A stretch of 32,005 nt of DNA from a virus (lineage: Duplodnaviria > Caudoviricetes). A model generated the notes under the pieces. That model did not search any database. It saw nothing but the letters and a program-made list of their open reading frames with translations, and was not told the origin of the DNA. Position numbers and translations under genes: made by a program. The DNA lies in IMG/VR virus record IMGVR_UViG_3300006483_000006, positions 1 through 32,005 of that record, one strand, 5' to 3'. Below, in pieces: positions 1,213-32,005 of this stretch (its first letter is position 1; the number at the start of each line of letters is the position of its first letter).

Positions 1213-1222
1213 ATCCTCTCCT

Positions 1223-3436: not shown

Positions 3437-3442
3437 GATCGC

Positions 3443-3640: not shown

Positions 3641-3645
3641 GTCCC

Positions 3646-8730: not shown

Positions 8731-8752
8731 GATGTGCTCCTGATGGTTGCGG

Positions 8753-9223: not shown

Positions 9224-9232
9224 GGCTGCCTC

Positions 9233-10903: not shown

Positions 10904-10906
10904 GGA

Positions 10907-11209
10907 TTACCTCCCCTTGTTCCTGGCGATGCGCCCGCCGCCCAGCCTCCGTCTTCGCAGCAGCTCCACGGCCTGGCCGAACTGCTCGGCGCTGACGGTT
11001 TTGCCCGGAGCCCAGCCTGTGGCCTGGCGCAGGGCGGCCAGCTCCCAAGCCGGCAGACCCTGCGCGTAGGCGTGCTCCTCCACCAGGCGCATTTCGTCGG
11101 GCTTGGCCGGTGTGACTTCGGCCGGCTCGGACGTAGCCGCGCGGCGCGGATCGATGCGGTTTTCGCTCTGGCGCTCGGCCAGGTCAGCCTTGGTCTTGTC
11201 CTTGGCCAT
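10907..11209 (-). CDS. Small hypothetical protein preceding the sheath
   Basis: 100 aa ORF filling the gap, with GGAGG RBS. Confidence 0.75.
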   Translation of the reverse strand: MAKDKTKADLAERQSENRIDPRRAATSEPAEVTPAKPDEMRLVEEHAYAQGLPAWELAALRQATGWAPGKTVSAEQFGQAVELLRRRRLGGGRIARNKGR

Positions 11210-11210
11210 G

Positions 11211-11735
11211 TCATGCCTCCTGGACGGTCAGGCCGTCCGTGACGTTAATTTTGCGCACCAGCGGATGCTCCTCATCCTGGCAGAGCATGCCCGTGATGCG
11301 GATATGCAAGGCTGCCGCGCGCCGACGGAAGACCTCCACGGTCTTGCGCCCATAGCCGCCGAGGATCGCGCGAAACGCTTCCACTCGCACCAGGTTGTTG
11401 TCGGCGTCCGCCGTCCGCGCCGGCAGAACCAGGAGAAAGGCTGGCATAAAGGCCTCCAGCCACTCCTCGTCGTCGGCAATGATCTCGACACGCACGTCCA
11501 GCCTGCGGGTGTAGATCCGCGCGCGGATGGTCTCGTGCGTGCCGGGCTGCGTCTCTGACGGTACCCGCGCGATCTTGTCGTAGTCGCGCGCAAGGCTCTC
11601 CGGCAAAAACTCGATCTCCAGTCGGGGCGACTTGGCCAGCTTGTCCTCGCGTTCGGGCTTGCGGTCCACGCGCTCAGCCGGCAGCCCTGCAGCCACGGCC
11701 GCGTCGCGGATGATCTGCTCGGCAAGACTTCTCAT
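11211..11735 (-). CDS. Putative tail terminator / completion protein, 174 aa (MRSLAEQI...)
   Basis: Position between gpG-like gene and sheath; start at 11735 avoids overlap. Confidence 0.65.
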   Translation of the reverse strand: MRSLAEQIIRDAAVAAGLPAERVDRKPEREDKLAKSPRLEIEFLPESLARDYDKIARVPSETQPGTHETIRARIYTRRLDVRVEIIADDEEWLEAFMPAFLLVLPARTADADNNLVRVEAFRAILGGYGRKTVEVFRRRAAALHIRITGMLCQDEEHPLVRKINVTDGLTVQEA

Positions 11736-11743
11736 TTTGAGTG

Positions 11744-12244
11744 TCACCGCCCGGCGCGGACGCCGAAGCCGGCGGCCAGCCAGGTCTGCACGGTCTGTTG
11801 TGTGTCCACGATGTCCTGCTTCGAAATGCCGATGAATGGCCGGGGCGGGATGCTCACGGCCTTTTTTCGCGCCCAGCGCCCACCGACCTGGAAGCGCAAG
11901 TACGGCGCGTTCTTGGCGCGGATATCGGCCCCAAACTGGTGCGTGGCCGCGTATTCGACGTTCGTGCCCACGGCGACCAGGTTGAGACTGGCCTCGTAGC
12001 CGATGGAGTTTTTGAGCCTGGCCGTGTCCACCAGGGTCTGCCCCCCTTCGGCCTGGGCGCGGATGGACGGCTCCCAATTTTCGCCGCCCGGCCCGCGCCC
12101 GTCCTCGAAGCGCTGCTGCGTGGAGCTGACCAGCTGCTCGCCGATCTGCTCCATGATCTCCTGCCGCGCCTGCACGTGGGCGATGGCCTTGCCGACCATG
12201 CCACGCAGGCCGGACAGATCCATCCTGAAGCTCGCGCCGGCCAT
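11744..12244 (-). CDS. Virion morphogenesis protein (Mu gpG / P2 gpS-like)
   Basis: RFEDGRGPGGENWEPS, LVDTARLKNSI, VGTNVEYAATHQFG, IPPRPFIG. Confidence 0.93.
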   Translation of the reverse strand: MAGASFRMDLSGLRGMVGKAIAHVQARQEIMEQIGEQLVSSTQQRFEDGRGPGGENWEPSIRAQAEGGQTLVDTARLKNSIGYEASLNLVAVGTNVEYAATHQFGADIRAKNAPYLRFQVGGRWARKKAVSIPPRPFIGISKQDIVDTQQTVQTWLAAGFGVRAGR

Positions 12245-12669
12245 CAGAAGCGCTCCCAGGTGTCAGGCCCGAACAGGGCCTGGGGCGCGTGGACCTCGAC
12301 GCCGGCATCAGCCACGGGCTCGGCGCCGAGGCGCTCCAGGCCGATGTCGTCCTTGCCCTCGACGATGCGCGCGAGCGCCTTGCGTGCCTCCCGGACCTGG
12401 TCCAGGAGGAACATGAACTCGGCCTCGTTGAGCAGCGTGGTGATGGCGCCGACCACGCCGTGGGCGGCCAGGGCCGCCGCGATCTGGCGCAGGGTGTCCG
12501 GGACCGTGGCGAGCGGCAACACGAACGTGGCGCGCAGGGCGTCCTCGACCCGACCGTTGGCCGCCGCGACGCAGCGGTCAACGATGCCGGGCGCGATCTC
12601 CTCGGCTTTGGCCTGGTAGGCCAGGAGCAGATACTCGCTCAAATCCTCACGACGGCAGTACACAGACAC
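12244..12669 (-). CDS. Head-tail adaptor (Mu gp36 / DUF1320-like)
   Basis: GTG start; YC..EDL, A..RVEDAL...F.LPL..VP..L pattern; follows capsid. Confidence 0.85.
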   Translation of the reverse strand: MSVYCRREDLSEYLLLAYQAKAEEIAPGIVDRCVAAANGRVEDALRATFVLPLATVPDTLRQIAAALAAHGVVGAITTLLNEAEFMFLLDQVREARKALARIVEGKDDIGLERLGAEPVADAGVEVHAPQALFGPDTWERF

Positions 12670-12685
12670 CTCTCTCGCGCGTTTG

Positions 12686-12706
12686 GGACTAGTCTTAGAC
12701 TAGTCC
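12686..12706. repeat. Perfect inverted repeat GGACTAGTCT-T-AGACTAGTCC
   Basis: 10-bp arms with a 1-nt spacer; each arm contains the palindrome GACTAGTC; intergenic between capsid and gp36. Confidence 0.9.
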
Positions 12707-12731
12707 GCGGACCAAAGCCCTACGCCAGGAC

Positions 12732-13709
12732 CTAGCTCAGCACCTGGGCCACGCAGATGCCCCGCATATTGGGCACCGGGAACGGCTTGGACTCGCCCAC
12801 CAGCATCCAGCCGCTGGGATCGTCCCGCTTCAGGGGCTTAACGAACATGGGCAGAGGCTGGAGGTTGGCGTCCAAATCGTCCACGGCCGCGTAGATGAGC
12901 CGGTGGTCGGCATCCTTGGCGACCATGCGCACGGTCTTGGCCGGCACCACGGGCGTCATCTGCCTGGTCTCGGGGTCGCGGTACTTCTCGGCCCGGCGCC
13001 GGACGAGGAAACCGCCGACGTTGATGCCCTGGTCCGTGATCTCCACGCGGATCTTGGCCGTGGTCTTGGAGTCCTCGGCCAGCCTGAACAGCTGGTTGTA
13101 CACGTCACCCGAGGCCTGAATCTCGACCTCGCCGCCGTAGCCTTCGGCCTCCAAGGCCTCCTGCATGGCCGTAAGCGTCTCGAAGACGTCGGCCAGCCTG
13201 ACGCCCTCGGCGCCCCACTTCTTGGCCGGGGTGACGCTGAGCGCATCCCCGAAGTCGATAACCCAGCGCTCGAAACCTCCAGCCTCCATCTGCACGGGCC
13301 AGTCGATCTCGCCGCCAAGCGCCTGGGAGCACAGGGCCTCGGTAGTCTTGCGCACGCCCCGGCGCAGCAGGTCGGCCTTGCCCTGCGCCCAGGTCTCCTT
13401 GGCGTTCTGGCCCAGGAGCTTGAGGTTGTTGAGGTCCATCCCGGCCACGAACGTATTGGGCTTGACCGGCAACGGCTCGTAAAAGTCGGCCTGGCCGGAA
13501 TCCCTGGTGGCCGGGATGGAGGCCGAGCCGCGCTTGACCACGGGCAGGGCGTGCACCACACCCTTGATCTCGTGGACGCCCACGATGGGCATGGCCAGCT
13601 GGGGCCGATTCAGAAACAGGCTGTCCATGATGGGCGTCTTGATCACGGGCAGGGCCAACAGGTAGCGCACTATGGCGTCGCGGCTGAACAGTCCGCGGAT
13701 GTCGAGCAT
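12732..13709 (-). CDS. Major capsid protein (Phage_cap_E-like)
   Basis: 325 aa; PVVKRGS, RKTTEALCSQAL.G, IDFG, DDPSG...LVGESKPFPVP. Confidence 0.93.
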   Translation of the reverse strand: MLDIRGLFSRDAIVRYLLALPVIKTPIMDSLFLNRPQLAMPIVGVHEIKGVVHALPVVKRGSASIPATRDSGQADFYEPLPVKPNTFVAGMDLNNLKLLGQNAKETWAQGKADLLRRGVRKTTEALCSQALGGEIDWPVQMEAGGFERWVIDFGDALSVTPAKKWGAEGVRLADVFETLTAMQEALEAEGYGGEVEIQASGDVYNQLFRLAEDSKTTAKIRVEITDQGINVGGFLVRRRAEKYRDPETRQMTPVVPAKTVRMVAKDADHRLIYAAVDDLDANLQPLPMFVKPLKRDDPSGWMLVGESKPFPVPNMRGICVAQVLS

Positions 13710-13742
13710 GATGTCCTCCGATGTGATTGCGGCTGGCCCGGC

Positions 13743-14093
13743 CTAGACCGGGTAGATACCGCTGGCTTGCAGTTTGCGCAGCATGGCCGCGTCGGGCTCG
13801 GCCGGGTCGGTCGCACCGACCTTGAGCACGTCGCGGCGCACGGTGCCGTGGATGACCACCACGCCGGCCGTGGCCAGGGCCGTGTCCAGGATCTCGTCCA
13901 GCACGGCCACGGGCTCGGCATCTTCGGCCTGGGGAATCAGGTTGCCGTCCTCGTCCTTGGCCAGGACGAGGCCCACGGGCAGCACGCCCTGGGCCTCCGC
14001 GAATGAGGCAGTGACCAGCACCGGACCGTGGCCCTTGATGCCCGCGCGCTCGTCGTCGTAGCTAAAGCTGTGTATCTTGCCGTTGATGGGCAT
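13743..14093 (-). CDS. Head decoration protein
   Basis: 116 aa between protease and capsid; LPVGLVL, VAVL, C-terminal L...GIY. Confidence 0.8.
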   Translation of the reverse strand: MPINGKIHSFSYDDERAGIKGHGPVLVTASFAEAQGVLPVGLVLAKDEDGNLIPQAEDAEPVAVLDEILDTALATAGVVVIHGTVRRDVLKVGATDPAEPDAAMLRKLQASGIYPV

Positions 14094-14111
14094 GTCGTAC
14101 TCTCCTTGCGC

Positions 14112-14546
14112 CTAGACCTTGCTGGTCAGGTCGACAGGCGTCTTGTCGTCGGTCCGCTTGCCCGGCGCGGCCCGCGCGGCCGTGGCAAACTCGGTGAGCA
14201 GGCCGTGGGGCTTGCGGGCCTCCAGGCTGCGCCAGTAGGACTCCTCCTGGCTGATCTGCTCGACCTTGCCGCCAGCCGCGAAATTGACAGTCGTGCCGGC
14301 CTGGCCCAGGGTCGCGGCAAAGCCCAGGACTTGGTCCTTTTCGGCGGGCAGGGCTTTCTCGTCGGCCACGAGCTTGTCGAAGCGCGCCTCGCGGGCGGCC
14401 GTTTCCTGCTGGCCCTTGAAGGCTGCAAAGTCGGCCGTGGCCTTGTCCTTGCCCTTCACGGCCTCGTCGCGCTCCGTGGCCAGCTGCTTGTTCTGGTCCT
14501 CCAGCTCCTTGACCCTCTTCGTGGCCTCTTCCAACGTCAGCGCCAT
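14112..14546 (-). CDS. Internally initiated scaffold protein (Mu gpZ-like), 144 aa
   Basis: In-frame AGGAGG-attcc-ATG at 14546 preceding the coiled-coil MALTLEEATKRVKELEDQNKQL. Confidence 0.7.
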   Translation of the reverse strand: MALTLEEATKRVKELEDQNKQLATERDEAVKGKDKATADFAAFKGQQETAAREARFDKLVADEKALPAEKDQVLGFAATLGQAGTTVNFAAGGKVEQISQEESYWRSLEARKPHGLLTEFATAARAAPGKRTDDKTPVDLTSKV

Positions 14547-14984
14547 GGAATCCTCCTGTGGCTGTGAGCCCTCGGGCTCGTTTGAAAACTCGATGCTCCA
14601 GGCCCCGCGCTCGGCCTGGAGCTGCACCGCGCCCAGGCCGTCGATGGCCGGGGGCGCGGCGCCGAGCAGGCCCACGTGGCGCAGGGTCCAGTTCGGGTTG
14701 AGGCTCATGGACACGTAGCGGTAATGGCCGTCGGAGATGAGCCGCCCGACCTCTTCGGGCACGTCCTTGAGCCTGGCCTGGAGCACGTCGCCGACCACGC
14801 GCAACTGCTCGACCCAGCCGAAGGCGGGGTCATTAGTCCGTGGGTGGCCGAAGACCAGCGGGGCCTGCAGCCGCGTGGGGTCGTAGCTGCGCACGATCTG
14901 GTCCAGCGTAGACCTGGTGAGGTCCACCAGGCGGCCGGCCATGTCCTTGAACGATCCGACTCGGGCGATGTTGATCCAGCTCAT
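14112..14984 (-). CDS. Prohead protease/scaffold (Mu gpI-like), 290 aa
   Basis: GGAGG-N4-ATG at 14984; APLVFGHP, PAFGWV, YRYVS, LRHVGLLGAAPPAIDGL. Confidence 0.93.
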   Translation of the reverse strand: MSWINIARVGSFKDMAGRLVDLTRSTLDQIVRSYDPTRLQAPLVFGHPRTNDPAFGWVEQLRVVGDVLQARLKDVPEEVGRLISDGHYRYVSMSLNPNWTLRHVGLLGAAPPAIDGLGAVQLQAERGAWSIEFSNEPEGSQPQEDSMALTLEEATKRVKELEDQNKQLATERDEAVKGKDKATADFAAFKGQQETAAREARFDKLVADEKALPAEKDQVLGFAATLGQAGTTVNFAAGGKVEQISQEESYWRSLEARKPHGLLTEFATAARAAPGKRTDDKTPVDLTSKV

Positions 14985-15025
14985 GCGTCCTCCGTAATAC
15001 GTCCGGCTGGCCGCAACCATGCGGC

Positions 15026-20957: not shown

Positions 20958-21373
20958 CAGTCCTTGTCCCTCTTGTCCTTTTTCACGGCATCAAGCAGAC
21001 GCGGCACAACCTTCTCGGCCGAACGCCCGATGACGTATCCACCCAGGCCCAACTCCAGCAGGTCCCAGGCATGCTCGGAGAGTCTGTTGGGCAGCAGGTC
21101 CACCGAATCCAGCACGACGAGCACCAAGAAGGTGATCATGGTCACGGGCCTCCAGTTGGATTGCAGCCAGCCCTTGCCCGCCGCCTCGGCCGTGATTGCC
21201 TTGGCGCGCGCGTCCATGAGCCCGGTCTCGTATTGCAGCATGCGCTCGGAGAGCTGCACCTCCAGCTGCAGCAGGGCGCGCTGGGCCTCCAGGCGCTCCT
21301 TGTCCGACGTAAATTTGTCGATGATCTTGTTGACGGGCGACATGAGACCCGAAAGGAAGCCTGTGACGCTCAT
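20957..21373 (-). CDS. Holin (3TM / GTA-type); start may instead be TTG at 21385
   Basis: KIIDKF, AITAEA, WLQSNWRP, LGLGGYVIGRSAEK; adjacent to the endolysin. Confidence 0.85.
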   Translation of the reverse strand: MSVTGFLSGLMSPVNKIIDKFTSDKERLEAQRALLQLEVQLSERMLQYETGLMDARAKAITAEAAGKGWLQSNWRPVTMITFLVLVVLDSVDLLPNRLSEHAWDLLELGLGGYVIGRSAEKVVPRLLDAVKKDKRDKD

Positions 21374-21381
21374 GACTGTGC

Positions 21382-21828
21382 TCAAGGCCTGAAGAACATG
21401 ATGCCGGTCACTGCCACGGGCCAGTTGCGACAGTCGATGTGCAGCCAGGACACGTCGTCCTCGACACCGGTGATGTGGCGGTAGGCCTCGCGGTCCGGAT
21501 GCGTGCGCATGTCCTCGCGGATCTCGGCGGCAGTAACCTGCACCGGGACCAGGTCCAGCGCGCGGCCGAAGCGATGCTGGCTGAACTCAGCGCCGATGTC
21601 GGTGGACGGCAGGCGGAAGCCGCGCTGTTTGTGGCCGGCCTCGCCGCGCCACTGCCAGTCATTGCAGACCAGCGGCCCGTACAGCTCGCGCAGTTGGTCC
21701 GCGGCCCACAGGATGCGCCAGTCGAAAAGCGTCCACACGCGGCCGAGCATCCCGCGCGCCACCAGGCGGGCATGACAGGCCGGGCTGACCAGCTCTTGGG
21801 GACCAAAGTATTGGGGGACGTAGTGCAT
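21382..21828 (-). CDS. Endolysin, peptidase M15 family, 148 aa
   Basis: YF...ELV, RGFR, SQHRFGRALD, WLHID zinc-ligand motifs; AAGGAG RBS. Confidence 0.9.
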   Translation of the reverse strand: MHYVPQYFGPQELVSPACHARLVARGMLGRVWTLFDWRILWAADQLRELYGPLVCNDWQWRGEAGHKQRGFRLPSTDIGAEFSQHRFGRALDLVPVQVTAAEIREDMRTHPDREAYRHITGVEDDVSWLHIDCRNWPVAVTGIMFFRP

Positions 21829-21885
21829 ATGTGCGTACTCCTTGCGCCGGACGATAGCCGGGCGGGAAGCTCTTGCAGAGGGCTG

Positions 21886-21906
21886 TATGCAAACTATGCA
21901 AACTAT
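21886..21906 (-). promoter_or_regulatory. Tandem 9-bp repeat ATAGTTTGC ATAGTTTGC ATA, putative lysis/late promoter activator site
   Basis: Perfect direct repeat between the terminator and the lysin RBS, followed by TATCGT as a possible -10. Confidence 0.6.
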
Positions 21907-21936
21907 CGTGTCCTTGTTTTGCGGGCATGTGAGCGC

Positions 21937-21969
21937 AAAAAAAGAGAAGCGGCCCATGTGAGCCGCTTC
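21937..21969 (-). terminator. Rho-independent terminator closing the early/middle transcript
   Basis: GAAGCGGCTC-ACA-TGGGCCGCTTC hairpin followed by TCTTTTTTT. Confidence 0.85.
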
Positions 21970-21995
21970 GGATGGAGGGGGTATGGCGGGATGTT

Positions 21996-22436
21996 TCAGG
22001 CGGGAAGCATTTGCCGGACGCTGTCCGTCGTCACTCGCAACGGAGGCAGATCACTGGCGCGGACCAGGCGTCCATCATCGACATAGTTGTATATCTCGCG
22101 CTCGGACACACCGAGCACCCAGGCAGCCTCGTCAACACGCAGGACTAATTTGCTTTCAAGTAGCGCCCTGGCGCTCACTTGTGGCAGATAAGCAAAATAC
22201 CCTCGCGCCCGCCGCCGACTCCTGACAGGCAACGCCAGCTCAAACCCCTCCGGGTTGGCCAGGGCGCAATAGCGCCGGCAGCCAATGCAGATATAGTGCT
22301 GTTGTTTTTCAAACCACCGGGCTTTTTTTGAATTTGAACAGTCCAACTGCTCGTACACTATGGGCTGGATGTGGCCCTTATACGGCAAAAACTCGCGCTG
22401 GAGCATGCGCAACACATCCTCAATCTGCCTGCTCAT
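21996..22436 (-). CDS. Cys-rich protein with C-terminal excisionase-like HTH; candidate late activator
   Basis: C...CIGCRRYC; LRVDEAAWVLGVSEREIYNYVDDGRL; last gene before the terminator and lysis genes. Confidence 0.75.
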   Translation of the reverse strand: MSRQIEDVLRMLQREFLPYKGHIQPIVYEQLDCSNSKKARWFEKQQHYICIGCRRYCALANPEGFELALPVRSRRRARGYFAYLPQVSARALLESKLVLRVDEAAWVLGVSEREIYNYVDDGRLVRASDLPPLRVTTDSVRQMLPA

Positions 22437-22866
22437 GGATCACCTCCAGGTCATGGACCGGCACCGGATCGCGGGCGCCGATGCACTTGACCAGCCATTG
22501 TCCCGTAGCCAACTGGTATGGATCGCCGGCCGTCCAGGTCGCCGTAAAGAACGTCTTGTCGCCAATGCGCGCCGTGGGCATGCGCACCCGTGTGCCCCGA
22601 GGCAACACCGGGGCCTCGCGCGGAGCCTCCAGGCCGAGGACCGCCCCGAACTCGCGGGCCAGATAGGCGGCCAGGCCGGACAGGTCGAAAAATGTGTACT
22701 TGCTGCCATTGCAGGCCCAGCGGCCATTGACGCGCAGGCGCAGTAACCCCGGCTCGGAGCCCTCGGCATCGGGCCATTGGGCGGCATCGTATAACTCAAC
22801 CTTGAGTCGCGCTTTGCTCTCGGTGGTGAGCAAAAGGAGCGCCTTGCGTGTGCGGGATTCTGCCAT
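22420..22866 (-). CDS. Hypothetical protein, 148 aa
   Basis: Co-oriented ORF with GAGG RBS, overlapping the next gene. Confidence 0.7.
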   Translation of the reverse strand: MAESRTRKALLLLTTESKARLKVELYDAAQWPDAEGSEPGLLRLRVNGRWACNGSKYTFFDLSGLAAYLAREFGAVLGLEAPREAPVLPRGTRVRMPTARIGDKTFFTATWTAGDPYQLATGQWLVKCIGARDPVPVHDLEVIHEQAD

Positions 22867-22875
22867 CGTGTGCCT

Positions 22876-23100
22876 CTACTGCTCGTGTGCGGAAATATCG
22901 CGCACCAGGCGCGCGACCTCGTCCCTGGTCAGGTGCACAACGTCACCCGAACCAAAGACCATCTGGACAAATGGTTCGGGGCGGACCGGTCCGGCGACGG
23001 CAGCGGCCTTGGTCGCTTTGGCCCGCTTGCGACGCTCCTGCCAGGGAGCCCCTACCCAAATCCAAAAGATGACTATTCCGAGCCCCAATCCTTCGAGCAT
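22876..23100 (-). CDS. Small single-TM hypothetical protein, 74 aa (MLEGLGLG...)
   Basis: Hydrophobic N-terminus followed by a basic stretch; fills the gap. Confidence 0.55.
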   Translation of the reverse strand: MLEGLGLGIVIFWIWVGAPWQERRKRAKATKAAAVAGPVRPEPFVQMVFGSGDVVHLTRDEVARLVRDISAHEQ

Positions 23101-23114
23101 GTTTGTCACCCAAA

Positions 23115-23432
23115 TTAAGAATTTAACGTCATGACCGCCCGCGCCTGGGCGCGCAGGGTCTGCTGGCACTCTGTGCATGGCCGGGGGCCTGGCCGGCGGC
23201 AGCGGCTGCAGGCCACAGTCTCCAGGGCCGTGTAGATCCGCGCCTCGGGGTCATCGGTGGAGACCAGCGAGGCCCGGATGCGCGCCACCTGGCGCTCGGT
23301 GTCGCCGCCGTATCGCTGGCCGAGCACGGCGTAGACCATGCTCTTGGGCAGCCGGCTGCACCGCACGAAGCGGTAGACCGTGCCGTATAGCTGCTCGATC
23401 TCGGCCCGCAGTTGCGCCAGGTCGATCGACAT
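23115..23432 (-). CDS. Putative HTH DNA-binding protein with C-terminal CxxC...C cluster
   Basis: 105 aa; GTVYRFVRCSRLPKSMVYAVLGQRY; CSRC...CTEC. Confidence 0.7.
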   Translation of the reverse strand: MSIDLAQLRAEIEQLYGTVYRFVRCSRLPKSMVYAVLGQRYGGDTERQVARIRASLVSTDDPEARIYTALETVACSRCRRPGPRPCTECQQTLRAQARAVMTLNS

Positions 23433-23433
23433 C

Positions 23434-24510
23434 TCACGCGCCCACCGCCTGCTGCTGATTCAGAAACCGCTGGGCGAACTGATTCAACCTTGGGGCTGAA
23501 ACGGTCTGTTTGCCGGCTTTGGCCAGGTCAAAGTGATTCAGGAGCAGGGACACGTCGCGGGGATTGACTCCCTCGCGCCTGCTCCACTCGCGCTGGCTCA
23601 GGCCAGAGACTTGGATGCACGCGGCCACTCGCTTCTGCAGCCGCTTGATCAAAAATTCCGTGGGCTGAATCACTGTTTCCGAGGCCTGGTTCATTTCAGG
23701 CGCGGCGGGTGTTTCAGATGATTCAGCCGGATCCGTTTCAGCAGGCGCGGGTGATTCAGGCGATTCAACCTCGGCTGAAACAGGCGTTTCAAGCGCCTCC
23801 GCCTGGGCCGAGGGCGCCTCGGGCTCGGAAACGACCTCGGGGCTGACAACCGGGGTCAGGGCCTCCAACTCGCCGCAGGCAACCCGAGCCCTCGGGGCTG
23901 GCTCGCCCGTCTCGGCGCTCTGACGCCAGCGCCGGCCGCACATGGCCGCCATGCTCGCCGCACCGGTCTGCAGGAGCAGCAGGGCCAGGGCCTGCAGGCC
24001 GCAGGCGGCCCAGGTCTGCCAGGGCAGGCCGGCGGCCGTGGCGTTGGCCAGGCTGGCGCGCTGTGCCTCCAGCTCCGCGATGGCCAGGCGAGCGTCATCG
24101 ATACGGCCGTGCCAGCCGTAGCGGCCCGAGGCCGTGATCTCCAGGTAGCGGGCCAGTTCCGCGCGTCGGGCCTCCATGGCCGCATCCAGGCGGGCCAGTT
24201 CGGCTGGCCGGGCGTCGGCGGCCGTGCGCGCCTCGATGAGCGGCCGGCTGACCATGTACAGCGGCCCGGCCAGCAGCACGGCCGTGGCCACGACTCCGAG
24301 CAGACCGCACCCGAGCCTGGCCGCCCAGCCGCGCGCGGCAAAGGCCCAGGCTAGCCACACGGCAGCCAGCACGCCCAGGGCCACGGACAGGGCCGGGCCG
24401 GCCTGGGCGTGGAAATGGGCGCGCCAAAACGCCCAGCCGTGGATCTGGACCAGGGCCTCGCAGCCGATAAGGATCAGGCCGGGGATGATCAGGCTCGGGA
24501 TGCGTCGCAT
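23434..24510 (-). CDS. Multi-TM membrane protein with coiled coil, P/E/S/A-rich linker and C-terminal XRE-like HTH
   Basis: 358 aa; about 4 hydrophobic segments; LSQREWSRREGVNPRDVSLLLN; AAGGAG RBS. Confidence 0.8.
   Translation of the reverse strand: MRRIPSLIIPGLILIGCEALVQIHGWAFWRAHFHAQAGPALSVALGVLAAVWLAWAFAARGWAARLGCGLLGVVATAVLLAGPLYMVSRPLIEARTAADARPAELARLDAAMEARRAELARYLEITASGRYGWHGRIDDARLAIAELEAQRASLANATAAGLPWQTWAACGLQALALLLLQTGAASMAAMCGRRWRQSAETGEPAPRARVACGELEALTPVVSPEVVSEPEAPSAQAEALETPVSAEVESPESPAPAETDPAESSETPAAPEMNQASETVIQPTEFLIKRLQKRVAACIQVSGLSQREWSRREGVNPRDVSLLLNHFDLAKAGKQTVSAPRLNQFAQRFLNQQQAVGA
23456..23792. repeat. Cluster of 12 YGWTTCAR octamers in both orientations
   Basis: GWTTCA cores start at 23457, 23481, 23535, 23711, 23720, 23735, 23753, 23762, 23786 (+); TGAAWC cores at 23497, 23666, 23776 (-). 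Confidence 0.88.
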
Positions 24511-24522
24511 GATAGGGCTCCT

Positions 24523-24636
24523 TTATCGCGCAAAAATCAGGGCCAGCAGAAAGGCCAGGAACGGATGGTCGGACAAGGCCAGAAGAAAGCAGAAAAACAG
24601 GACCAGGCCGTTCCACATGGATATTTCGAGGGACAT
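24523..24636 (-). CDS. 37-aa hydrophobic membrane peptide MSLEISMWNGLVLFFCFLLALSDHPFLAFLLALIFAR
   Basis: ATG overlaps the gemA stop (TGATG); its TAA runs into the AAGGAG RBS of the next gene; absent from the ORF track. Confidence 0.7.
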   Translation of the reverse strand: MSLEISMWNGLVLFFCFLLALSDHPFLAFLLALIFAR

Positions 24637-25115
24637 CAAATCACCTCGGCATTGTCCGGGTCGATGCCGCGCTTGTTGCAGCGGTTGTGCAGGTCCTTGC
24701 TCAGGGTCTGGAGATGCGATTGGTCCTTGAGCCAGGCAAACTGGGCCACGCCGAACTGGCGCTGGCAGCGCTCATTCAGATAATCCAGGCTCCAGCCCAG
24801 CGCCCGAACCTGGGCCAGGATGCGCCGCTTCTGCCGGGCGTTGGGGTCGCTGTCCGGGATCGTCACGAAGATCCGCGCCTGGTCGGCCGCCTTGGCCGTC
24901 TTCTTGAGCCCGGCGGGTTGCGCCGGGCCGGCCCAGCCCCTGGCCACGAAATGGTTGAGCAGTTGCGAGAGCTGCGGGACGGTCAAGCCCCTGGAGGACT
25001 CGACGCCGTACAGCTCGGCCAGCATGGCGCGGTATTCGGGGTCGGACAGGCCCAGGCCTTTTTTGGCGATGTGGATCTTGGCCAGCAGGCCCTTGCGGGC
25101 GGTGTGCTTGCTCAT
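24636..25115 (-). CDS. gemA: GemA / Mu gp16 (DUF1018) family protein, 159 aa
   Basis: LAKIHIAKKGLGLSDPEYRAML...GVESS..LT..QL. Confidence 0.9.
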   Translation of the reverse strand: MSKHTARKGLLAKIHIAKKGLGLSDPEYRAMLAELYGVESSRGLTVPQLSQLLNHFVARGWAGPAQPAGLKKTAKAADQARIFVTIPDSDPNARQKRRILAQVRALGWSLDYLNERCQRQFGVAQFAWLKDQSHLQTLSKDLHNRCNKRGIDPDNAEVI

Positions 25116-25681
25116 CTCTGCCTCCTCTTGAGTTGCTCGACGGCGGCCTTGGCCTTGGCGGCGATGTCTCCGGTGTTGACCTTGCGCGGTGCGCTCTCCC
25201 AAGCCGCCGGCTGATAGGCCGGGCAGGTCGGCTCGGACCTGTGCGGTGGATGGCGCAATGACTCCTCTCTGCGGCGCAGAGCCGCCTCGCCGGCCTTGTC
25301 GGCCTCGCCGTAGGCGATGGTGCGCAGCAGGTTGTGGCCTTTGAGCGGCCTGGTCAGAGTGCCCGCCGCATCCTTGCCAAGCACATGCTCCATTGCCCGC
25401 AGCCAGTATTCCGGGCGGTTGTCCAGGATGCGCCGCCCCTCCCACTGGATGGTGGGCTTGCTCACGAGGGCGAGCAGCTCCTCGGCCAGGGCGCGCGCCC
25501 GAGACCAGGCCAGCCCGCGCGCCGAGCCCGGCCGGCGGAACAGCGCCAGATAGCGCGGACCGTGCGCGGCCAGGCCTGGCGACAGGCCCACCAGGGCCTC
25601 CAGGGTCTTGCGCGCGTCCAGGTCCAGCGACCAGGCGTCCAGCGAGCAGAGCGCGCCGCAGGAGGGGCAGGCTAGGCGCAT
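25112..25681 (-). CDS. Mu-like phage hypothetical protein with N-terminal CPxCG, 189 aa
   Basis: MRLACPSCGA..SLDA, YLALFR, L.WSRA, LTRPLKGHN.L; GGAGG RBS. Confidence 0.8.
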   Translation of the reverse strand: MRLACPSCGALCSLDAWSLDLDARKTLEALVGLSPGLAAHGPRYLALFRRPGSARGLAWSRARALAEELLALVSKPTIQWEGRRILDNRPEYWLRAMEHVLGKDAAGTLTRPLKGHNLLRTIAYGEADKAGEAALRRREESLRHPPHRSEPTCPAYQPAAWESAPRKVNTGDIAAKAKAAVEQLKRRQR

Positions 25682-25712
25682 GGGGCCTCCAGAGTGGTCA
25701 TGATAGCCCTCC

Positions 25713-26108
25713 CTACAGATCGCAATGGGTGTGAGGAGCGTCGGCTGGGGCGTAGCCACGGCGTGCCCGCCAGCAAGCGTCGCAACGGTAGTTGTTCGTG
25801 GGACTGCCACAGTCGGTGCAGTGGCGACCGGCGCAATTGCCTCGGCGGTCAGAGACGCCAGCGATGACGCGGGCCATGTTCGGGGCCGGGAGACCGGCAG
25901 CGGCGGCTGCGCCAGGCCCCCACGCCAGCTCGAGCAGCGCGTTGACCTGCGCTCGGCCATGGGTCGACGATACGCGAGGCAGCTTCATCCCGGACGTGGA
26001 GTGCGGCGTATGAGCCAGGATTTTCCCCGTCTGGAGATTGCGGACGTCGCCCTGGCGGTTGATCTCGTAGCCCGGCCAGCGTTCGATGGGTCGCCATTCG
26101 GTGTTCAT
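25713..26108 (-). CDS. NUMOD4-like domain protein with C-terminal zinc ribbon, 131 aa
   Basis: EWRPIERWPGYEINRQGDVRN; CTDCGSPTNNYRCDAC; ATGA coupling to the upstream ORF. Confidence 0.78.
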   Translation of the reverse strand: MNTEWRPIERWPGYEINRQGDVRNLQTGKILAHTPHSTSGMKLPRVSSTHGRAQVNALLELAWGPGAAAAAGLPAPNMARVIAGVSDRRGNCAGRHCTDCGSPTNNYRCDACWRARRGYAPADAPHTHCDL

Positions 26109-26284
26109 CTGCATCTCCTTGCGTTGCGCGCCAGCTTCCTGGCGGCCTCGGCCTCGCGGCGGGCGGCCGTGAGGTAGGCGTTGCGACCGATCCGATCCCT
26201 GACCTTGCCCAGGCGATTGACCTGGCTGGCCAGGTCCGCGTGCTGCTCCAGAGGGTCGCTGTAGCGGATGCGCTGGGGTCTCAT
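26105..26284 (-). CDS. Small basic hypothetical protein, 59 aa (MRPQRIRY...)
   Basis: GGAG-N6-ATG at 26284; the alternative ATG at 26308 lies inside the ribozyme core. Confidence 0.6.
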   Translation of the reverse strand: MRPQRIRYSDPLEQHADLASQVNRLGKVRDRIGRNAYLTAARREAEAARKLARNARRCR

Positions 26285-26296
26285 GGGTCGCTCCGG

Positions 26297-26364
26297 TTGG
26301 CTGCTCATCAGGGCCGGGCCGCCACGCCTGGCCGACCGCCGCCCGAAGGCGGACGGTTTCGCAG
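26297..26364 (-). ncRNA. Type II hammerhead ribozyme
   Basis: CUGC-GAAA-[CCG U CCGCC UUCG GGCGG CGG]-UC-[GGCC A GGC GUGGCG GCC C GGCC]-CUGAUGA-GCAG-CCA; complete core, three stems, GUC cleavage triplet. Confidence 0.92.
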
Positions 26365-26368
26365 TGCT

Positions 26369-26581
26369 TTAGATGGCCCGCACGTGCCGCAAGGTCTGCC
26401 ATCCGCCAATCTGGGCCACGCGCACAGCCGCGCGCTCGCCGATCAGGCAGGCCTTGGACAACGTGACGGTCTGCACCGTGCCTCCGCCCGGCCGCATCAC
26501 GCTGACGACCGTGCCCACGGGATAGCGGCTGTTCCAGGTGTCGGTGGCGGCACTCGCCGCTTCGTATGGCGTCATGGCCAT
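26369..26581 (-). CDS. Hypothetical phage protein, 70 aa
   Basis: WNSRYPVGT.V motif seen in small phage proteins; GGAGG RBS. Confidence 0.7.
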   Translation of the reverse strand: MAMTPYEAASAATDTWNSRYPVGTVVSVMRPGGGTVQTVTLSKACLIGERAAVRVAQIGGWQTLRHVRAI

Positions 26582-26582
26582 G

Positions 26583-26825
26583 CTATTTCCTCCCTGCGGG
26601 TTCCGGGTACCGATGCACCATGAATTCGTTTCCGGGGCCTATCGTGTGCGGCAGTTGGCAGGCGTTGTCGCAGCCAGGGCAGCGCAGGCGGCCGTCGCAC
26701 ATCTCAAGGGCGCGGGCGCGGAACATCCCGCCGGGACGGGCCTGCTCGCAGGGCTTGTAGCCGGGGATGACCACATACACAGGCACACCGCCTGGGGACG
26801 TGGATATCTGCTCAAAGATTCTCAT
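26583..26825 (-). CDS. Small Cys-rich protein, 80 aa (paralogue 2)
   Basis: MRIFEQISTSPGGVPV...GYKPC...CPGC...C.LP; ATGA coupled. Confidence 0.75.
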   Translation of the reverse strand: MRIFEQISTSPGGVPVYVVIPGYKPCEQARPGGMFRARALEMCDGRLRCPGCDNACQLPHTIGPGNEFMVHRYPEPAGRK

Positions 26826-27073
26826 GCCGCGTCCCCCCTGGATGGCGCGCAGGCGCGCCGGATCACCAGGAACTCCGCGCCCTGAGCCACGCAGCCGGGC
26901 AGCTCGCACATGCGCTCGCAGCACGGGCAGATGAGCTGCCCGCCACGCATCACGGCCCGGCCGCGCAACTCCTGGCCGCGCAGAGGCAGCATCTTGCAGG
27001 GCTTGTAGCCGTACTCCACCATCAGGATCGGGATGCCGCCCGGCGTGTCGGTCTTGTGCAGGAGGTTGCTCAT
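26822..27073 (-). CDS. Small Cys-rich protein, 83 aa (paralogue 1)
   Basis: TPGGIPI...GYKPC...CPCC...C.LP; ATGA coupled to gam. Confidence 0.78.
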   Translation of the reverse strand: MSNLLHKTDTPGGIPILMVEYGYKPCKMLPLRGQELRGRAVMRGGQLICPCCERMCELPGCVAQGAEFLVIRRACAPSRGDAA

Positions 27074-27561
27074 GCCGCGTCCTCCTGAATGGCCGTGGTA
27101 TCCGGCTCCACGCGGAACGAGTCTTCCACCCGCCGCCGCAGACCGAGCTTGGCCAGCAGTCCGTCATCCAACTTTTCCAACTTCTCCTTGAGGGGCTTTT
27201 CCTCTGTTTGGATGCACTCTGTGCACCCGTAGGCGCGCAGGGCCTTGAGCAGAGCCGCGACCTTGTCCTTGGCCCTGGGCACGCTCACCGAGCGCACCAG
27301 GCGATAGCCCACCTCGCCAAAGGTCATCTTCCGGGTCCGCACTTTCGAAAACTCGGCCTTGCGCTCCTCGCAAAACGTTTCCACGGCCCTTCGCAGTGCG
27401 GTCCGCTCCGCCCCAAGGCCGTCGGTCCTGGCCTTGGCCTCGGCCCGGATGGTGTTGATGCGCAGGAGCGCGTCGCCGTTGGCCCGCTCCATGGCGATGT
27501 CGATCTCGCCCATGCGGCGCAGGGCCTGGTCAACGTCCTCCCAGCTGGCAATGGTCTGCAT
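27070..27561 (-). CDS. gam: Host-nuclease inhibitor Gam (Mu Gam family), 163 aa
   Basis: SWEDVDQALRRMGEID, FCE..K.EF, RKMTFGEVGYR, C-terminal DSF.VEP. Confidence 0.92.
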   Translation of the reverse strand: MQTIASWEDVDQALRRMGEIDIAMERANGDALLRINTIRAEAKARTDGLGAERTALRRAVETFCEERKAEFSKVRTRKMTFGEVGYRLVRSVSVPRAKDKVAALLKALRAYGCTECIQTEEKPLKEKLEKLDDGLLAKLGLRRRVEDSFRVEPDTTAIQEDAA

Positions 27562-27580
27562 GCCGTCATCCTCCCTTTGG

Positions 27581-27829
27581 CTAATAATCGTTGCGCCAGC
27601 AGTCATTGCGGCAGGCGAGGCATTGGTTGCACATATGCTCGGGGAGCACAGCACGCGGTCCCTCGGCCTCCTCCATGTCGAGGCTCATGCGCTCCAACTG
27701 CCCGATGGGCTCCTGGATGCCGCGTAGCTGCGCATGGATGGGACTCAACCGCTCCCACACGTCGGCCGGCACCGTGCCGGCCAGGGCGCCCAGGTCGTTC
27801 AGGGCGCTGTCAAACTTCTCGGTAATCAT
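27581..27829 (-). CDS. Hypothetical protein, 82 aa, with C-terminal CxxCxxCxxxC
   Basis: GGAGG RBS, ATGA coupling; ends in CNQCLACRNDC. Confidence 0.7.
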   Translation of the reverse strand: MITEKFDSALNDLGALAGTVPADVWERLSPIHAQLRGIQEPIGQLERMSLDMEEAEGPRAVLPEHMCNQCLACRNDCWRNDY

Positions 27830-28434
27830 GACTTCCTCCTGTTTCTGCGGATGGTTTCGCGGATGACCGGCCGTTGGGGGCCGGGATCGTTCGTGAGTTC
27901 GTAGATAGTGAGGACGCCGTCCTGTCCCGCCTCGGCCACATAGCCGGCCAGGCAGAGGAGCCTGACGTAATCCGCCACCGCGCCCTTGGCGCAGCCCGTG
28001 GCCTCGATCAGGGCGCGGCGGGTAAAACGGCGCATGTCGCGGACGGCCAGCCATATGCGGTCGCGGGCCGTGCCGGACTCGATGTCGCGCAGGCTGCCGG
28101 GCTGGACCAGGGCCTTCTGCACGCGCTGCCACGCGCCGGGCGTGGACTCGCGCAGCAACCGCACGTCGTGCGAGGACGTGTCCAGGACCAGGTCCAGCGT
28201 CATGCGCTCCTGACCGTCCGGGCTCGGCGCGGCCAGGGCCTGGCGGGCGGCCTGGGTGGCGCGATAGCAGCCTTGGCCGTGCGGGCGGATGTAGCCGGCG
28301 GAGGCGAGCCAGGCGCAGTAGGCCTGGGCCTCGTCCAGCGCTACGCCGGCAATGCGCGCGAGGTCATTCGCGTCCCAGCCCGGATTGGCCGTGCCGATGG
28401 CCCGCCACATGCGTTCGCGTTCGGCCGTCTGCAT
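27826..28434 (-). CDS. Tandem winged-helix protein, 202 aa
   Basis: Two similar units, R.RMWRAI...AYCAWLASAGYI and RDRIWLAV...DYVRLLCLAGYV; coupled to the B gene. Confidence 0.8.
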   Translation of the reverse strand: MQTAERERMWRAIGTANPGWDANDLARIAGVALDEAQAYCAWLASAGYIRPHGQGCYRATQAARQALAAPSPDGQERMTLDLVLDTSSHDVRLLRESTPGAWQRVQKALVQPGSLRDIESGTARDRIWLAVRDMRRFTRRALIEATGCAKGAVADYVRLLCLAGYVAEAGQDGVLTIYELTNDPGPQRPVIRETIRRNRRKS

Positions 28435-29138
28435 CAGCTCCTCCAGGTGGCGACCTGGCGGGCCACGTCGCCGGCCAGCTTGGCGTCGATGACCTTGGTG
28501 TCGCGGGCCTTGGCGGCCTTCTCCAAGTGGCCGAGCAGCGTCCAGACCAGCCGGAAGTCGCCGTCGGCGCGGCGCACGATGAGCGCGCCGGCCTCGGGCG
28601 CGACCTCCAGGCCGGCGGCCTCTTCGGCCAGGATGGCCACGTCCTCTTCGCTGACCGGCCCGAATTCGATGACCTGCTTGACACGGCTCCAGATGCGGCG
28701 ACGCTCGCCAAGCAGGCCCTTCATCTCCAGCTCGCCGATGAGCACCACGGGCGCGCCGGTCATGTCGTGGATATCGCGCAAGTCGTCGATGCGCTCCACG
28801 TGCAGGCGGTCGGCCTCGTCCACGAAGATCGTGCGCGGGGCCGCGTCCAGGGATTCGATTACGCGCCGCTTGCAGACCGCGAAGTTGGCCGGGCTCTCGC
28901 CGCTGGTGAGCAGGCACAGGGCCTGGACAAAGGCGGTCTTGGTCCAGCCGCCCATGACGCGCAGGTAGATCCCGCCGTTCTGGGCGTAGTAGTTGCGGGC
29001 CGTCTCGGTCTTGCCCCGGCCGGCCTGGCCGTAGACCAGGGCGAAGCCGGTCTCGCCCTCCACGGTGTCCTCCAGCGTGCGGATTTTGCGGCGGAACTCC
29101 GTGACGTTGCCGGTTTCAATGAATACATCCTTACGCAT
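28434..29138 (-). CDS. Transposition AAA+ ATPase (MuB-like)
   Basis: Walker A GQAGRGKT, Walker B IFVDEAD, LRDIHD...PVVLIG, RIWSRV. Confidence 0.95.
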   Translation of the reverse strand: MRKDVFIETGNVTEFRRKIRTLEDTVEGETGFALVYGQAGRGKTETARNYYAQNGGIYLRVMGGWTKTAFVQALCLLTSGESPANFAVCKRRVIESLDAAPRTIFVDEADRLHVERIDDLRDIHDMTGAPVVLIGELEMKGLLGERRRIWSRVKQVIEFGPVSEEDVAILAEEAAGLEVAPEAGALIVRRADGDFRLVWTLLGHLEKAAKARDTKVIDAKLAGDVARQVATWRS

Positions 29139-29147
29139 GGCGTCTCC

Positions 29148-31274
29148 TTATGCTTTGGCCCGTCGCCGGGCGTACAACCGTGCGAGGCCCTCGAAGCGGG
29201 CCTGGGCCACCTCGCGGTACTCCTGGCCCGCCTCGTAGGCGGCCATGAATTCCCGGTCCGGCTCGCGCAACGTCAGGCCGTCGCGGTAGGCCAGGCCGAA
29301 CAGGTATTCGTACTTGTCGAGTTCGCTGATGATGTGCGGCAGCTCGGCCGACGGCGTGTAGTCGCGCGCGGCCGTGACGCGCTCCTCGCGGGCCTTGCGC
29401 ACGGCGCTTTCGATGCGCCGGACCTTGGATGGCGGCAGGTTCGGGGCGGCGGCGCCAGCCTCGACCGCGGCAGTCTCGCGCGTGGCCTCGGACAGCTCGG
29501 TCATGCGCCTGCGCTGGTCGGCCAGGGCGGCGTCCAGCACGCCGCGCGCAATGGACGAGGCCTCGTGCTCCTGGGCCTTCTTGAGGTCGATGGCCTGCTG
29601 CAACGCGCGCCGATCCTGCTCGTCGCCCAGGATGGATGCCGCCGGATGGATGCCGGCCACGCGCGTGGCCTCGCACAGGAGCGTCTTGCCCGTGGCGTCG
29701 TAGACCAGCACGCTGGAAGAGTCTTGCAGGTCGTAGCGCACGAGCGCGGAGTGCGTGCGTGAGTACAGCTCGGGCGCATAGTAGCGGCGACCGAACATCT
29801 TGATGCCATCGCGGGTGATCTTGGTGACACGCTGGCCCAGCATGAGGTGGCGCAGCTGGCGCTCGTCCACGCCGGGGCCGCGCCCGGCCAGGAAGACCTC
29901 GGCCGGGCATTTGCCGGACAGGTGGCCGCGCTGGGGACGGTTGATGTACTCGTCTATCCAGCGGGCCACGGCCACGTGGGCCTCCTCCAGGGTCAGGGCG
30001 CGGCCGCCGGCCGCCTCCCAGGCCTTGCGGTGCAGGGGCTCGCCCCGGCGCAGGCGCGGAGGCTTGGAGTCGATGTCCCGGCCCACGTAGGACGGCGACC
30101 ACTGCTCCAGATCGTGCAACGTGCCGAAAAAGCGTTCAATGGTCTTGGATTGGCCGTGGTAGGGCCAGGCAAAAATGGTGTGGATGCCAAGCTCGCCGAA
30201 CAGGCCGGACATGCCGGTCTGGCGGAAGTCCACGCCGTGGAAATACTTGGCCCGGAAGGCCTTGCCGTTGTCCAGGTAGGCGATGCGCGGGAACTTGCCC
30301 AGGGTGATGCAGGCCCGGCGGAAGGCCGCCGCGATTGCCTGCACGTTTTCCGTGGGCAGGATTTCCCAGCCCAGCGGGCAGTTGGAGGCCATGTCGTACC
30401 AGGTCACGAGCTCCATGCGCTGAGGCTTGCCGGTCCAGGGGTTGATGATCTCAAAATTAAGCACGTGGCCGTCGGCCACGAGGATGTCGCCGACCTGGAT
30501 GCGCGAGTAGTCACGGTCGATGTAGAAAGCGGCCAGATCGTTCCAGGCTTTTTTGCCCTGGCGCGTGTAGACCCAGGTGCCGAAATTTGTGGAGCGCCAC
30601 TGGTCCAGGAAGCGGCGCATGGTGGCCTCGCTGGGCGGGATCAGGCCGCTGGCCTGCATGGTCGGCTCGGCCATGCGCACGGCCGAGGACACGGTGGGCG
30701 CGTTGGGCAGCAGCACGGCCCGCAGGAGGATCTCCACGTGCGCCTCGGTCATGACCTTGCGCTCGACGTTGTGCTCGCCACGGCGGTCCACCAGGCTGAC
30801 CACGCTGCCCCGGCGGCGCAGACTGACCTTCCAGCGTTCGATGGACTGCCAGCTCGCGTTCGGCCCGAGGATCTCCAGCAGCCTGGGCCAGGCCCCGCCC
30901 CGGTAGGCCAGGACAAAATTCTCCCGCGCCGCGGCCTTGGTGCCGGTCTTGGCCTTACGCATCCACTCCACGTACAGGCTCACTAGGTCGGCCTTGGCCA
31001 GGGCCTTACCCTTCTTGGCCTCGGCCACCGGCGCCGTGGCCAGGGTCGGCTGATCCGGCGCGGGCAGGGCCTGGGCCTGGGCGGCTTCCTCCTCGTGGCG
31101 CAGGAGCTTGATGCGCAGGGCCTCGGGCATGGAGGACACAAGCCATTCGTGGCCGCCGCCGCGCCCCTTGCGCGGGCGGGATTGCCAGGATTCGGATTTG
31201 GCCTGGGCGTGTATCCGCTGTACTGACACACTCATGATCGCGGCCAACTCCCGTGTCGTGTATGATTCCTGCAT
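29148..31274 (-). CDS. Mu-type DDE transposase (MuA-like)
   Basis: 708 aa; N-terminal Mu HTH (YTTRELA...RKGRGGG.EW); catalytic VADGH, YLDNGKAF, KTIERFF; C-terminal VRYD...V.VYD. Confidence 0.97.
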   Translation of the reverse strand: MQESYTTRELAAIMSVSVQRIHAQAKSESWQSRPRKGRGGGHEWLVSSMPEALRIKLLRHEEEAAQAQALPAPDQPTLATAPVAEAKKGKALAKADLVSLYVEWMRKAKTGTKAAARENFVLAYRGGAWPRLLEILGPNASWQSIERWKVSLRRRGSVVSLVDRRGEHNVERKVMTEAHVEILLRAVLLPNAPTVSSAVRMAEPTMQASGLIPPSEATMRRFLDQWRSTNFGTWVYTRQGKKAWNDLAAFYIDRDYSRIQVGDILVADGHVLNFEIINPWTGKPQRMELVTWYDMASNCPLGWEILPTENVQAIAAAFRRACITLGKFPRIAYLDNGKAFRAKYFHGVDFRQTGMSGLFGELGIHTIFAWPYHGQSKTIERFFGTLHDLEQWSPSYVGRDIDSKPPRLRRGEPLHRKAWEAAGGRALTLEEAHVAVARWIDEYINRPQRGHLSGKCPAEVFLAGRGPGVDERQLRHLMLGQRVTKITRDGIKMFGRRYYAPELYSRTHSALVRYDLQDSSSVLVYDATGKTLLCEATRVAGIHPAASILGDEQDRRALQQAIDLKKAQEHEASSIARGVLDAALADQRRRMTELSEATRETAAVEAGAAAPNLPPSKVRRIESAVRKAREERVTAARDYTPSAELPHIISELDKYEYLFGLAYRDGLTLREPDREFMAAYEAGQEYREVAQARFEGLARLYARRRAKA

Positions 31275-31388
31275 CCGTCGTAGTCCTGATCCACCTGGGT
31301 GTACGTTCCGGTCCTACATGCCAGGGCCGCAAAAAGGCCCGCTTCCGCGCGTTGTGGGTTTCAGCGCGCTTACTAGGGCTCTTGAAGG

Positions 31389-31610
31389 CTAATTGAACCG
31401 ATAAGTACTGGTTTCGCAGTGATCCATGCTGTTTCTGAAGACCTTCACACGATATGAGCCGAGGGGAAGATTCCGGGCCGGTAGACCACCGGGATAGAAC
31501 ACCCTCATAATGGCGTCCCAAGTGGTCACGGCTTCGCCTTCGGGGATATAGAGGCTGATGCGATTGGCTGGTATTTCTATGCTTTCAGCCTGCACACGGA
31601 ACGCGCTCAT
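31389..31610 (-). CDS. Hypothetical protein, 73 aa
   Basis: ATGA-coupled ORF with GGAGG RBS; visibly lower GC. Confidence 0.55.
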   Translation of the reverse strand: MSAFRVQAESIEIPANRISLYIPEGEAVTTWDAIMRVFYPGGLPARNLPLGSYRVKVFRNSMDHCETSTYRFN

Positions 31611-31873
31611 TGCCTGCCTCCGTCCACGTTAGGGTCCTTTACAGTCCGGAAACTCGGACCATTATCGATGCACATGGCGCTGGGCAGACCGGCACACGGC
31701 ACATGTCCCAACGGCTTCAGAGGCTCTTGTGGCGCGTCATGATCGACCAAGAAGACTTGGCCCTCAACAATCGCCAAATCGACTACGCTCCCAAACTCAA
31801 GCTTGGTTTGGTACTGCCCGCAATAAACGTACACGCAGCCGTTACGCTGCACGATTCTTCGCAAACTCTGCAT
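31607..31873 (-). CDS. Hypothetical protein, 88 aa (MQSLRRIV...)
   Basis: TGATG coupling to the upstream ORF; AGGAGG RBS. Confidence 0.65.
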   Translation of the reverse strand: MQSLRRIVQRNGCVYVYCGQYQTKLEFGSVVDLAIVEGQVFLVDHDAPQEPLKPLGHVPCAGLPSAMCIDNGPSFRTVKDPNVDGGRQ

Positions 31874-32004
31874 CACGCCGCCTCCTGCTTCTCGTTTTCC
31901 AGATCCTTGGGCAGAGCCAGCCACTTCCGGGGGCAACCCCGGTCGCGCAAATATCGGAGCACTCGGCGGGCATTCTTGCGGCCAAATATGGTGTGGCTGA
32001 CCAG
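31873..32004 (-). CDS. Ner/Cro-like HTH regulator, C-terminal part (5' truncated by the window)
   Basis: ...LVSHTIFGRKNARRVLRYLRDRGCPRKWLALPKDLENEKQEAA*; position upstream of the transposase. Confidence 0.6.
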   Translation of the reverse strand: MVSHTIFGRKNARRVLRYLRDRGCPRKWLALPKDLENEKQEAA

Positions 32005-32005
32005 G

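Follow-up and report, generated by a model that had tools for sequence, protein, structure and literature searches.

A complete type II hammerhead ribozyme lies on the minus strand of a Mu-like phage (26295-26364), and the slot that this motif occupies, between gam or DUF3164 and gemA, stays fixed among relatives while the neighbouring genes change. On balance, and with little more than even confidence, we favour the reading that the hammerhead divides the early mRNA in two, each part capped by a hairpin and having its own fate, with the gemA part probably the longer-lived. The window, that is, the whole stretch of 32,005 nucleotides analysed here, is a linear virus record that is 68% complete. 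A preliminary description of this DNA had proposed a type II hammerhead, with an Rfam search as the check on it. An Rfam scan of the 32 kb window returned Hammerhead_II (RF02276) at 26364-26295 (minus strand) with 66.6 bits (E = 6.2e-12), against a gathering score of 37. The match covers model positions 1-66, the full model length. It is the sole Rfam match within the window, and the record holds no second copy of the motif. In 14 control genomes, the same search gave no match. The type II hammerhead is genuine and complete.

A coordinate check recovered all core and stem elements of the proposed ribozyme. Reading along the minus strand, the 5' strand of stem II (GC, 26361-26362) is followed by the core GAAA (26357-26360), whose alignment columns are invariant. 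The stem III hairpin (26335-26357), seen also in the product folds, consists of A26357-U26335 and three more pairs, a single bulged U (U26353) and a 5-bp hairpin with a UUCG loop. Next comes the GUC triplet (26334-26336), placed by the Rfam match as well, and the cut is predicted between 26334 and 26333 from the known hammerhead mechanism. The stem I hairpin (26312-26333) has eight positions including an A26329-C26316 mismatch, and carries in its loop the pseudoknot strand UGGC (26321-26324). The core CUGAUGA (26305-26311; also within the Rfam match), the 3' strand of stem II (GC, 26303-26304) and the 3'-tail pseudoknot strand GCCA (26298-26301) complete the motif. The core thus combines CUGANGA, GAAA and a UH cleavage site, with all bases intact. 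G26304-C26361 is the G-C pair that opens stem II beside the core, as is typical of type II. In addition, stems I and III are loop-closed and stem II is open, which agrees with the type II definition given in the passages of PMC3088659.

The loop I UGGC (26324-26321) is complementary to GCCA in the 3' tail (26301-26298), allowing four pairs that are kept across relatives; the pseudoknot of the preliminary description therefore stands. The 4-bp stem II that it had drawn together with this pseudoknot does not, since G26301 would be used twice, pairing with C26364 as the fourth stem II pair and with C26321 in the pseudoknot. The outer two pairs of stem II are seen in only 13/42 and 9/42 aligned copies, and the 4-bp stem was rejected. 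Because these outer pairs are rare and the four pseudoknot pairs are present in 95.2% of cells, we take a stem II of 2-3 bp plus the pseudoknot as the working fold, which is the one favoured by the 42 aligned copies. In the window copy, stem II can be extended by U26363-A26302.

The alignment behind these counts has 42 rows, the window copy and 41 from relatives. They were drawn from 52 distinct copies (window copy included), ten with a low score or an atypical length having been set aside. Across the 21 pairs of the fold, 97.1% of cells are paired, and 15 pairs show changes on both sides, including all eight of stem I and six of the seven of stem III. This level of pairing was reached by none of 500 shuffles, a comparison in which relatedness alone may beat the shuffles without any structure; slid controls, which retain the relatedness, are only 24-47% paired. 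The inner stem II pairs form in 42/42 and 39/42 rows, the three misses being rows shifted by an inserted base, and in the pseudoknot a two-sided change is seen for only one of the four pairs. The core columns show little or no variation. Overall, the fold is maintained under selection across copies. Its folding energy is unremarkable (z = 0.61; 141 of 200 shuffles were equally stable); therefore, the evidence for the motif is its core sequence and its covariation.

Several relatives carry variants of the motif. In two copies, both kept in the alignment (L013:3890 and L016:4175), the third and the eighth base of the core, which pair with each other in the active hammerhead fold, are substituted together. 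Single core changes are found at L002:3165 and L056:5426, and a U is inserted before stem II in L008, L009 and L039.

It is conceivable that the window copy itself has lost strength or is in decay, with little cutting as a result. Among the 42 copies, it is the only one unpaired at the stem I column of the A26329-C26316 mismatch. Naked-RNA folds that include the flanks, computed without the pseudoknot, give a pair probability of about 0 for stem II and of 0.06-0.76 for stem I. One relative has a remnant of the motif at L010:4335-4395 (also in L012), in which GAAA and the two hairpins persist and the CUGA core is lost; an intact copy follows 200 nt further on. Moreover, 4 of 18 consensus hammerheads tested failed to cleave according to the passages of PMC3088659. 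We nevertheless regard a decaying copy as improbable, given that the core bases are all intact, that the Rfam score is high and that the pair probability of stem I in the local fold is 0.98.

From its gene content, the window is assigned to a Mu-like phage. On the minus strand, a MuA-like transposase gene (29148-31274; PF09299; phrog_310, E = 8.9e-110) is followed by a MuB-like transposition ATPase gene (28434-29138; phrog_296, E = 1.4e-44), a regulator, a Gam-like gene (27070-27564; PF07352, E = 1.3e-34), three small ORFs, the ribozyme gap, three further ORFs and gemA (24636-25115; PF06252, E = 4.2e-19). MuA, MuB, gam and gemA share one orientation, as in a Mu-like early region, and the Gam-like gene and gemA served as upstream and downstream markers of the slot. 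The placement of the ribozyme between A/B/gam and gemA in the preliminary description was borne out, and relatives keep the same order. Many of the nearest GemA relatives belong to Desulfovibrio, Pseudodesulfovibrio or Desulfobulbaceae records; the host is therefore likely a member of the Desulfobacterota.

The ribozyme gap measures 84 nt and is the widest between MuA and gemA, where the other gaps range from -4 to about 31 nt. As initially described, the motif follows a stop codon and precedes a ribosome binding site (RBS). The upstream 70-aa ORF (26369-26581, minus strand), without family, has its stop ending at 26369, 8 nt before GAAA. On the other side, GGAG (26291-26294, minus strand) is probably the RBS of the next gene, a 59-aa ORF (26105-26284, minus strand; ATG at 26284) without family in the Pfam and PHROG search. 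Other small genes of the region have features of their own. Two adjacent and similar cysteine-rich ORFs of 83 and 80 aa (26583-27073, minus strand), without Pfam or PHROG family, have homologues that precede the ribozyme in L082 and follow it in L002, L025, L030, L034, L047 and L054. A 131-aa ORF (25713-26108, minus strand) weakly matches HNH-endonuclease PHROGs at its N-terminus (best E = 1.1e-07) and ends in a cysteine-rich tail.

For the minus strand of 21000-32005, a simple scan found no sigma-70-like promoter, and a similar scan found no terminator-like site between the end of MuA and gemA. These absences would fit a single early transcript. Further on (21946-21969, minus strand), a strong hairpin that resembles a terminator and is followed by a U tail lies between an HTH_17 gene and the endolysin gene, and could possibly mark the early/late boundary. 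The late activator that the preliminary description had placed downstream of the ribozyme was not recovered: in the record, 68% complete, no match to the Mor/C family (PF08765) was obtained after gemA or elsewhere at E ≤ 1. Nor did the two candidate ORFs after gemA give a Mor-like cluster; they resemble a hypothetical-protein cluster and an HTH_17 cluster.

The immediate flanks of the motif are similar from copy to copy. In 48 of the 52 distinct copies, an ORF of at least 40 codons ends in a stop codon located 1-13 nt ahead of GAAA (mode 3 nt), and in 33/52 a start codon with a purine-rich site lies 14-25 nt after the core. The ribosome footprint extends about 9 nt past a stop codon and about 20 nt before a start codon. 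Ribosomes on the flanking genes might thus cover the stem II strands and the pseudoknot tail, so that cleavage would track translation. In the computed folds, naked upstream RNA can also pair into stem III, in which case translation could aid folding. However, tight packing alone predicts such closeness, given the narrow gaps elsewhere between MuA and gemA, and may explain that of the stop codons. The same closeness is found in 7/8 copies of L173, a phage without gemA, mostly at 4-5 nt, so stop-codon closeness is not special to Mu-like phages. We consider gating by translation rather unlikely. As to the identity of the flanking genes, the upstream ORF is HU in 9/50 cases and DUF3164 in 4/50, and the downstream ORF is GemA in 5/43 and DUF2786 in 5/43; most have no family. 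A fixed partner gene was rejected, since the flanking genes vary widely.

The slot was then assessed in relatives chosen by gemA, the sample being the best 80 of 245 gemA-bearing virus records, several of them duplicates. RF02276 matched in 55 of these 80 records, 53 of them above the cut-off. All 61 copies in the 55 records are on the gemA strand and upstream of gemA. Fifty-nine of them fall within the loci that were retrieved and come after MuB in every case where that gene was detected; two extra copies are upstream of MuA. When loci with at least 3 kb upstream of gemA are considered, the ribozyme is present in 51/65 and absent from 14/65. Of the 23 loci with a detected Gam, 19 have it upstream of gemA and 4 downstream. 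The ribozyme stands between Gam and gemA in 14 of the 19, and in none of the 4, which look like two elements sampled twice. A locus search based on Gam returned no loci. Replacement of the hammerhead by another ribozyme class was rejected: no other Rfam ribozyme class was found in 12 hammerhead-less loci chosen from the 25 misses, nor in the early regions of Mu and B3.

Genome loci were searched with a model built from the 42-copy alignment, and 33/80 gave a match. Here, 35 of 37 copies are on the gemA strand and upstream of gemA. The two exceptions are a hammerhead downstream of gemA (L158:10879) and one on the opposite strand (L100:5207) in an apparently inverted block. The latter is a minus-strand ORF block (L100:4829-7078), with the hammerhead (5207-5276, minus strand) between a probable MuB and gemA, and represents either an inversion or an assembly error. 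Extra hammerheads upstream of the MuA-like transposase in L100 (1655-1723), L047 and L054 define a second slot. Two of the loci, L112 and L051, gave an identical match and are probably the same record. Because the records are related, the slot counts are not independent events.

A second sample started from the ribozyme itself. A loose pattern, run over 2 of the 64 parts into which the virus collection is divided, matched at 126 loci. The 79 entries with flanks, in which one record appears twice, provided the 78 records that were tested. The pattern is unspecific, with an Rfam match in only 16 of the first 50 records. Twenty of the 78 records carry gemA, one of them already in the gemA-first count. 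In all 20, the hammerhead is on the same strand as gemA and 0.07-2.6 kb upstream of it. The 19 further records (L166, L167, L169, L190, L191, L194, L202, L209, L211, L213-L215, L217, L220, L224, L225, L231, L232 and L234) all show the order gam or DUF3164, ribozyme, gemA. Gam (PF07352) is found in 4 of these 19 Mu-like records and DUF3164 (PF11363) in 15, never both and on the same side of the ribozyme; DUF3164 is also present in the early region of B3 and RS138. DUF3164 may thus stand in for Gam. Some hammerhead-bearing records have no gemA. This is so for 7 of the 16 with an Rfam match in the first 50, several of these seven being short fragments. Two records without a gemA match contain arrays of about nine type II copies within 4.6 and 5 kb, located between small genes (L173:447-5061, plus strand, and L227:161-5187, minus strand).

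The gam-gemA interval is a region where accessory genes come and go. In the closest relative, L082, whose GemA is 86% identical, the ribozyme stands directly before gemA and the three intervening genes of the window are missing. The motif might serve chiefly to mark the edge of a gene slot, as a short conserved stretch of homology through which accessory genes are swapped or duplicated, with cutting as a secondary property. The wide differences between flanking genes and the variation from zero to three genes before gemA would agree with this, as would RS138, in which two equal-scoring copies are each followed by a 135-nt ORF. Yet stem changes on both sides that keep the pairing erode DNA homology and preserve RNA structure, and the near invariance of the core also speaks for the RNA. 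A role mainly as a boundary appears very improbable to us.

Cultured phages carry the motif as well. A BLAST search with it returned 229 phage records at E ≤ 1, including 91 Pseudomonas and 99 Ralstonia phages, of which two (JBD30 and RS138) were verified. In JBD30 (JX434032), a single copy of 66.2 bits takes up exactly the 70 nt that separate genes 018 and 019, and the gene order is Gam, ribozyme, gemA, mor. In RS138 (NC_029107), the two copies (68.5 bits) lie between DUF3164 and gemA. Hence, both phages resemble the window in their Rfam scores and in the slot between gam or DUF3164 and gemA. They differ from it in that Mor, which follows gemA in both, was not found in the window, and RS138 has two copies instead of one. 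The database records of JBD30 and RS138 have no feature annotated at the ribozyme sites. Another 24 matching records are Streptomyces phages, with BLAST matches near the right genome ends (e.g. Diane, E = 1e-10). No ribozyme match was obtained even at E ≤ 1 in Mu (1-14000) or B3 (1-15000). Because these early regions and 14/65 of the gemA loci have no match, the Mu life style does not need the ribozyme.

In the favoured reading, a single cut at 26334/26333 would split the early mRNA, leaving the genes from the transposase to gam on one piece and gemA on the other. The upstream piece would have the stem III hairpin at its 3' end, closed by a 2',3'-cyclic phosphate. At the 5' end of the downstream piece, a 5'-OH would stand on the stem I hairpin, and this hairpin and the pseudoknot would lie only a few nucleotides ahead of the RBS. 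Such a 5'-OH end would be expected to escape RNase E. In the product folds, each predicted product retains its own hairpin at the cut end. With only 2-3 stem II pairs holding the two pieces together, they should separate rapidly, and the downstream message would probably be the longer-lived of the two. The end groups are those described for type II hammerhead cleavage in the passages of PMC8782182, a source that also reports cleavage in vivo of type II hammerheads near phage genes in Desulfovibrio vulgaris. Prophage type II copies cleave inside transcripts of about 2 kb (passages of PMC3088659). Splitting is favoured by the full Rfam match, the covariation, the conserved slot, the lack of promoter and terminator in our scans and the hairpin on each product. 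Against it stand the absence of a match in Mu and B3, the slot exceptions, the stem I mismatch, the poor fold with flanks and the relatedness of the records. Circularisation was rejected, as two copies are needed and the record has one.

The stability effect could also run in the opposite direction. In glmS, cleavage leads to decay (passages of PMC6765202), and a cut that passes the 5'-OH piece to degradation in the same way would damp the downstream genes, so that gemA and its neighbours stay at a low level. Reads from short 3' fragments at two D. vulgaris loci, for which lower stability is offered as one reading in the passages of PMC8782182, point the same way. The downstream piece, however, starts with an eight-position hairpin right at its 5' end, and the start codon placed 14-25 nt after the core in 33/52 copies resembles a leader made for translation. 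Damping is therefore an unlikely account, to which we give a small but real weight.

The window copy is a well-formed type II hammerhead in a setting usual for such motifs, and the motif itself is ordinary. In the passages of Perreault et al. (2011; PMC3088659), type II hammerheads with a loop I pseudoknot flank prophage genes. The window copy shares their core, permutation, short stem II, pseudoknot and site between small prophage genes, and differs by being single rather than one of a flanking pair and by its A-C mismatch in stem I. Three type II hammerheads near phage-like genes of D. vulgaris, active in vivo and with function not determined, are described by Olzog et al. (2021; PMC8782182); they are of the same type as the window copy and similarly placed near phage-like genes. 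Eckert et al. (2023; PMC10085705), on the basis of two earlier papers, state that bacterial ribozymes are linked most strongly to the genes of Mu-like phages, for a reason given as unknown. The window copy has exactly this setting, for which the passage names no position. The processing of long phage transcripts into shorter mRNAs was already proposed in PMC3088659 and is called unproven in PMC6765202. Both the Mu-phage link and the processing idea are thus already in print in these passages. The gam-to-gemA slot rule and the JBD30 copy were not found in the passages of the literature consulted, and may stand in supplements or in the papers cited by PMC10085705.

What the present analysis adds is the fixed slot between gam/DUF3164 and gemA, together with a workable phage that carries the ribozyme. 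A more specific and rather speculative extension, which we rate as improbable, is that the ribozyme between the end-protection gene (gam or DUF3164) and gemA, set between a stop codon and an RBS, acts in Mu-like phages of distant hosts as an early-to-middle switch: ribosome traffic would gate the cut, and the release of a long-lived gemA(-mor) message would thereby be tied to translation. The question of why Mu-like phages carry self-cleaving ribozymes is narrowed by the fixed slot and by the presence of a single copy in JBD30, a cultured and genetically workable phage.
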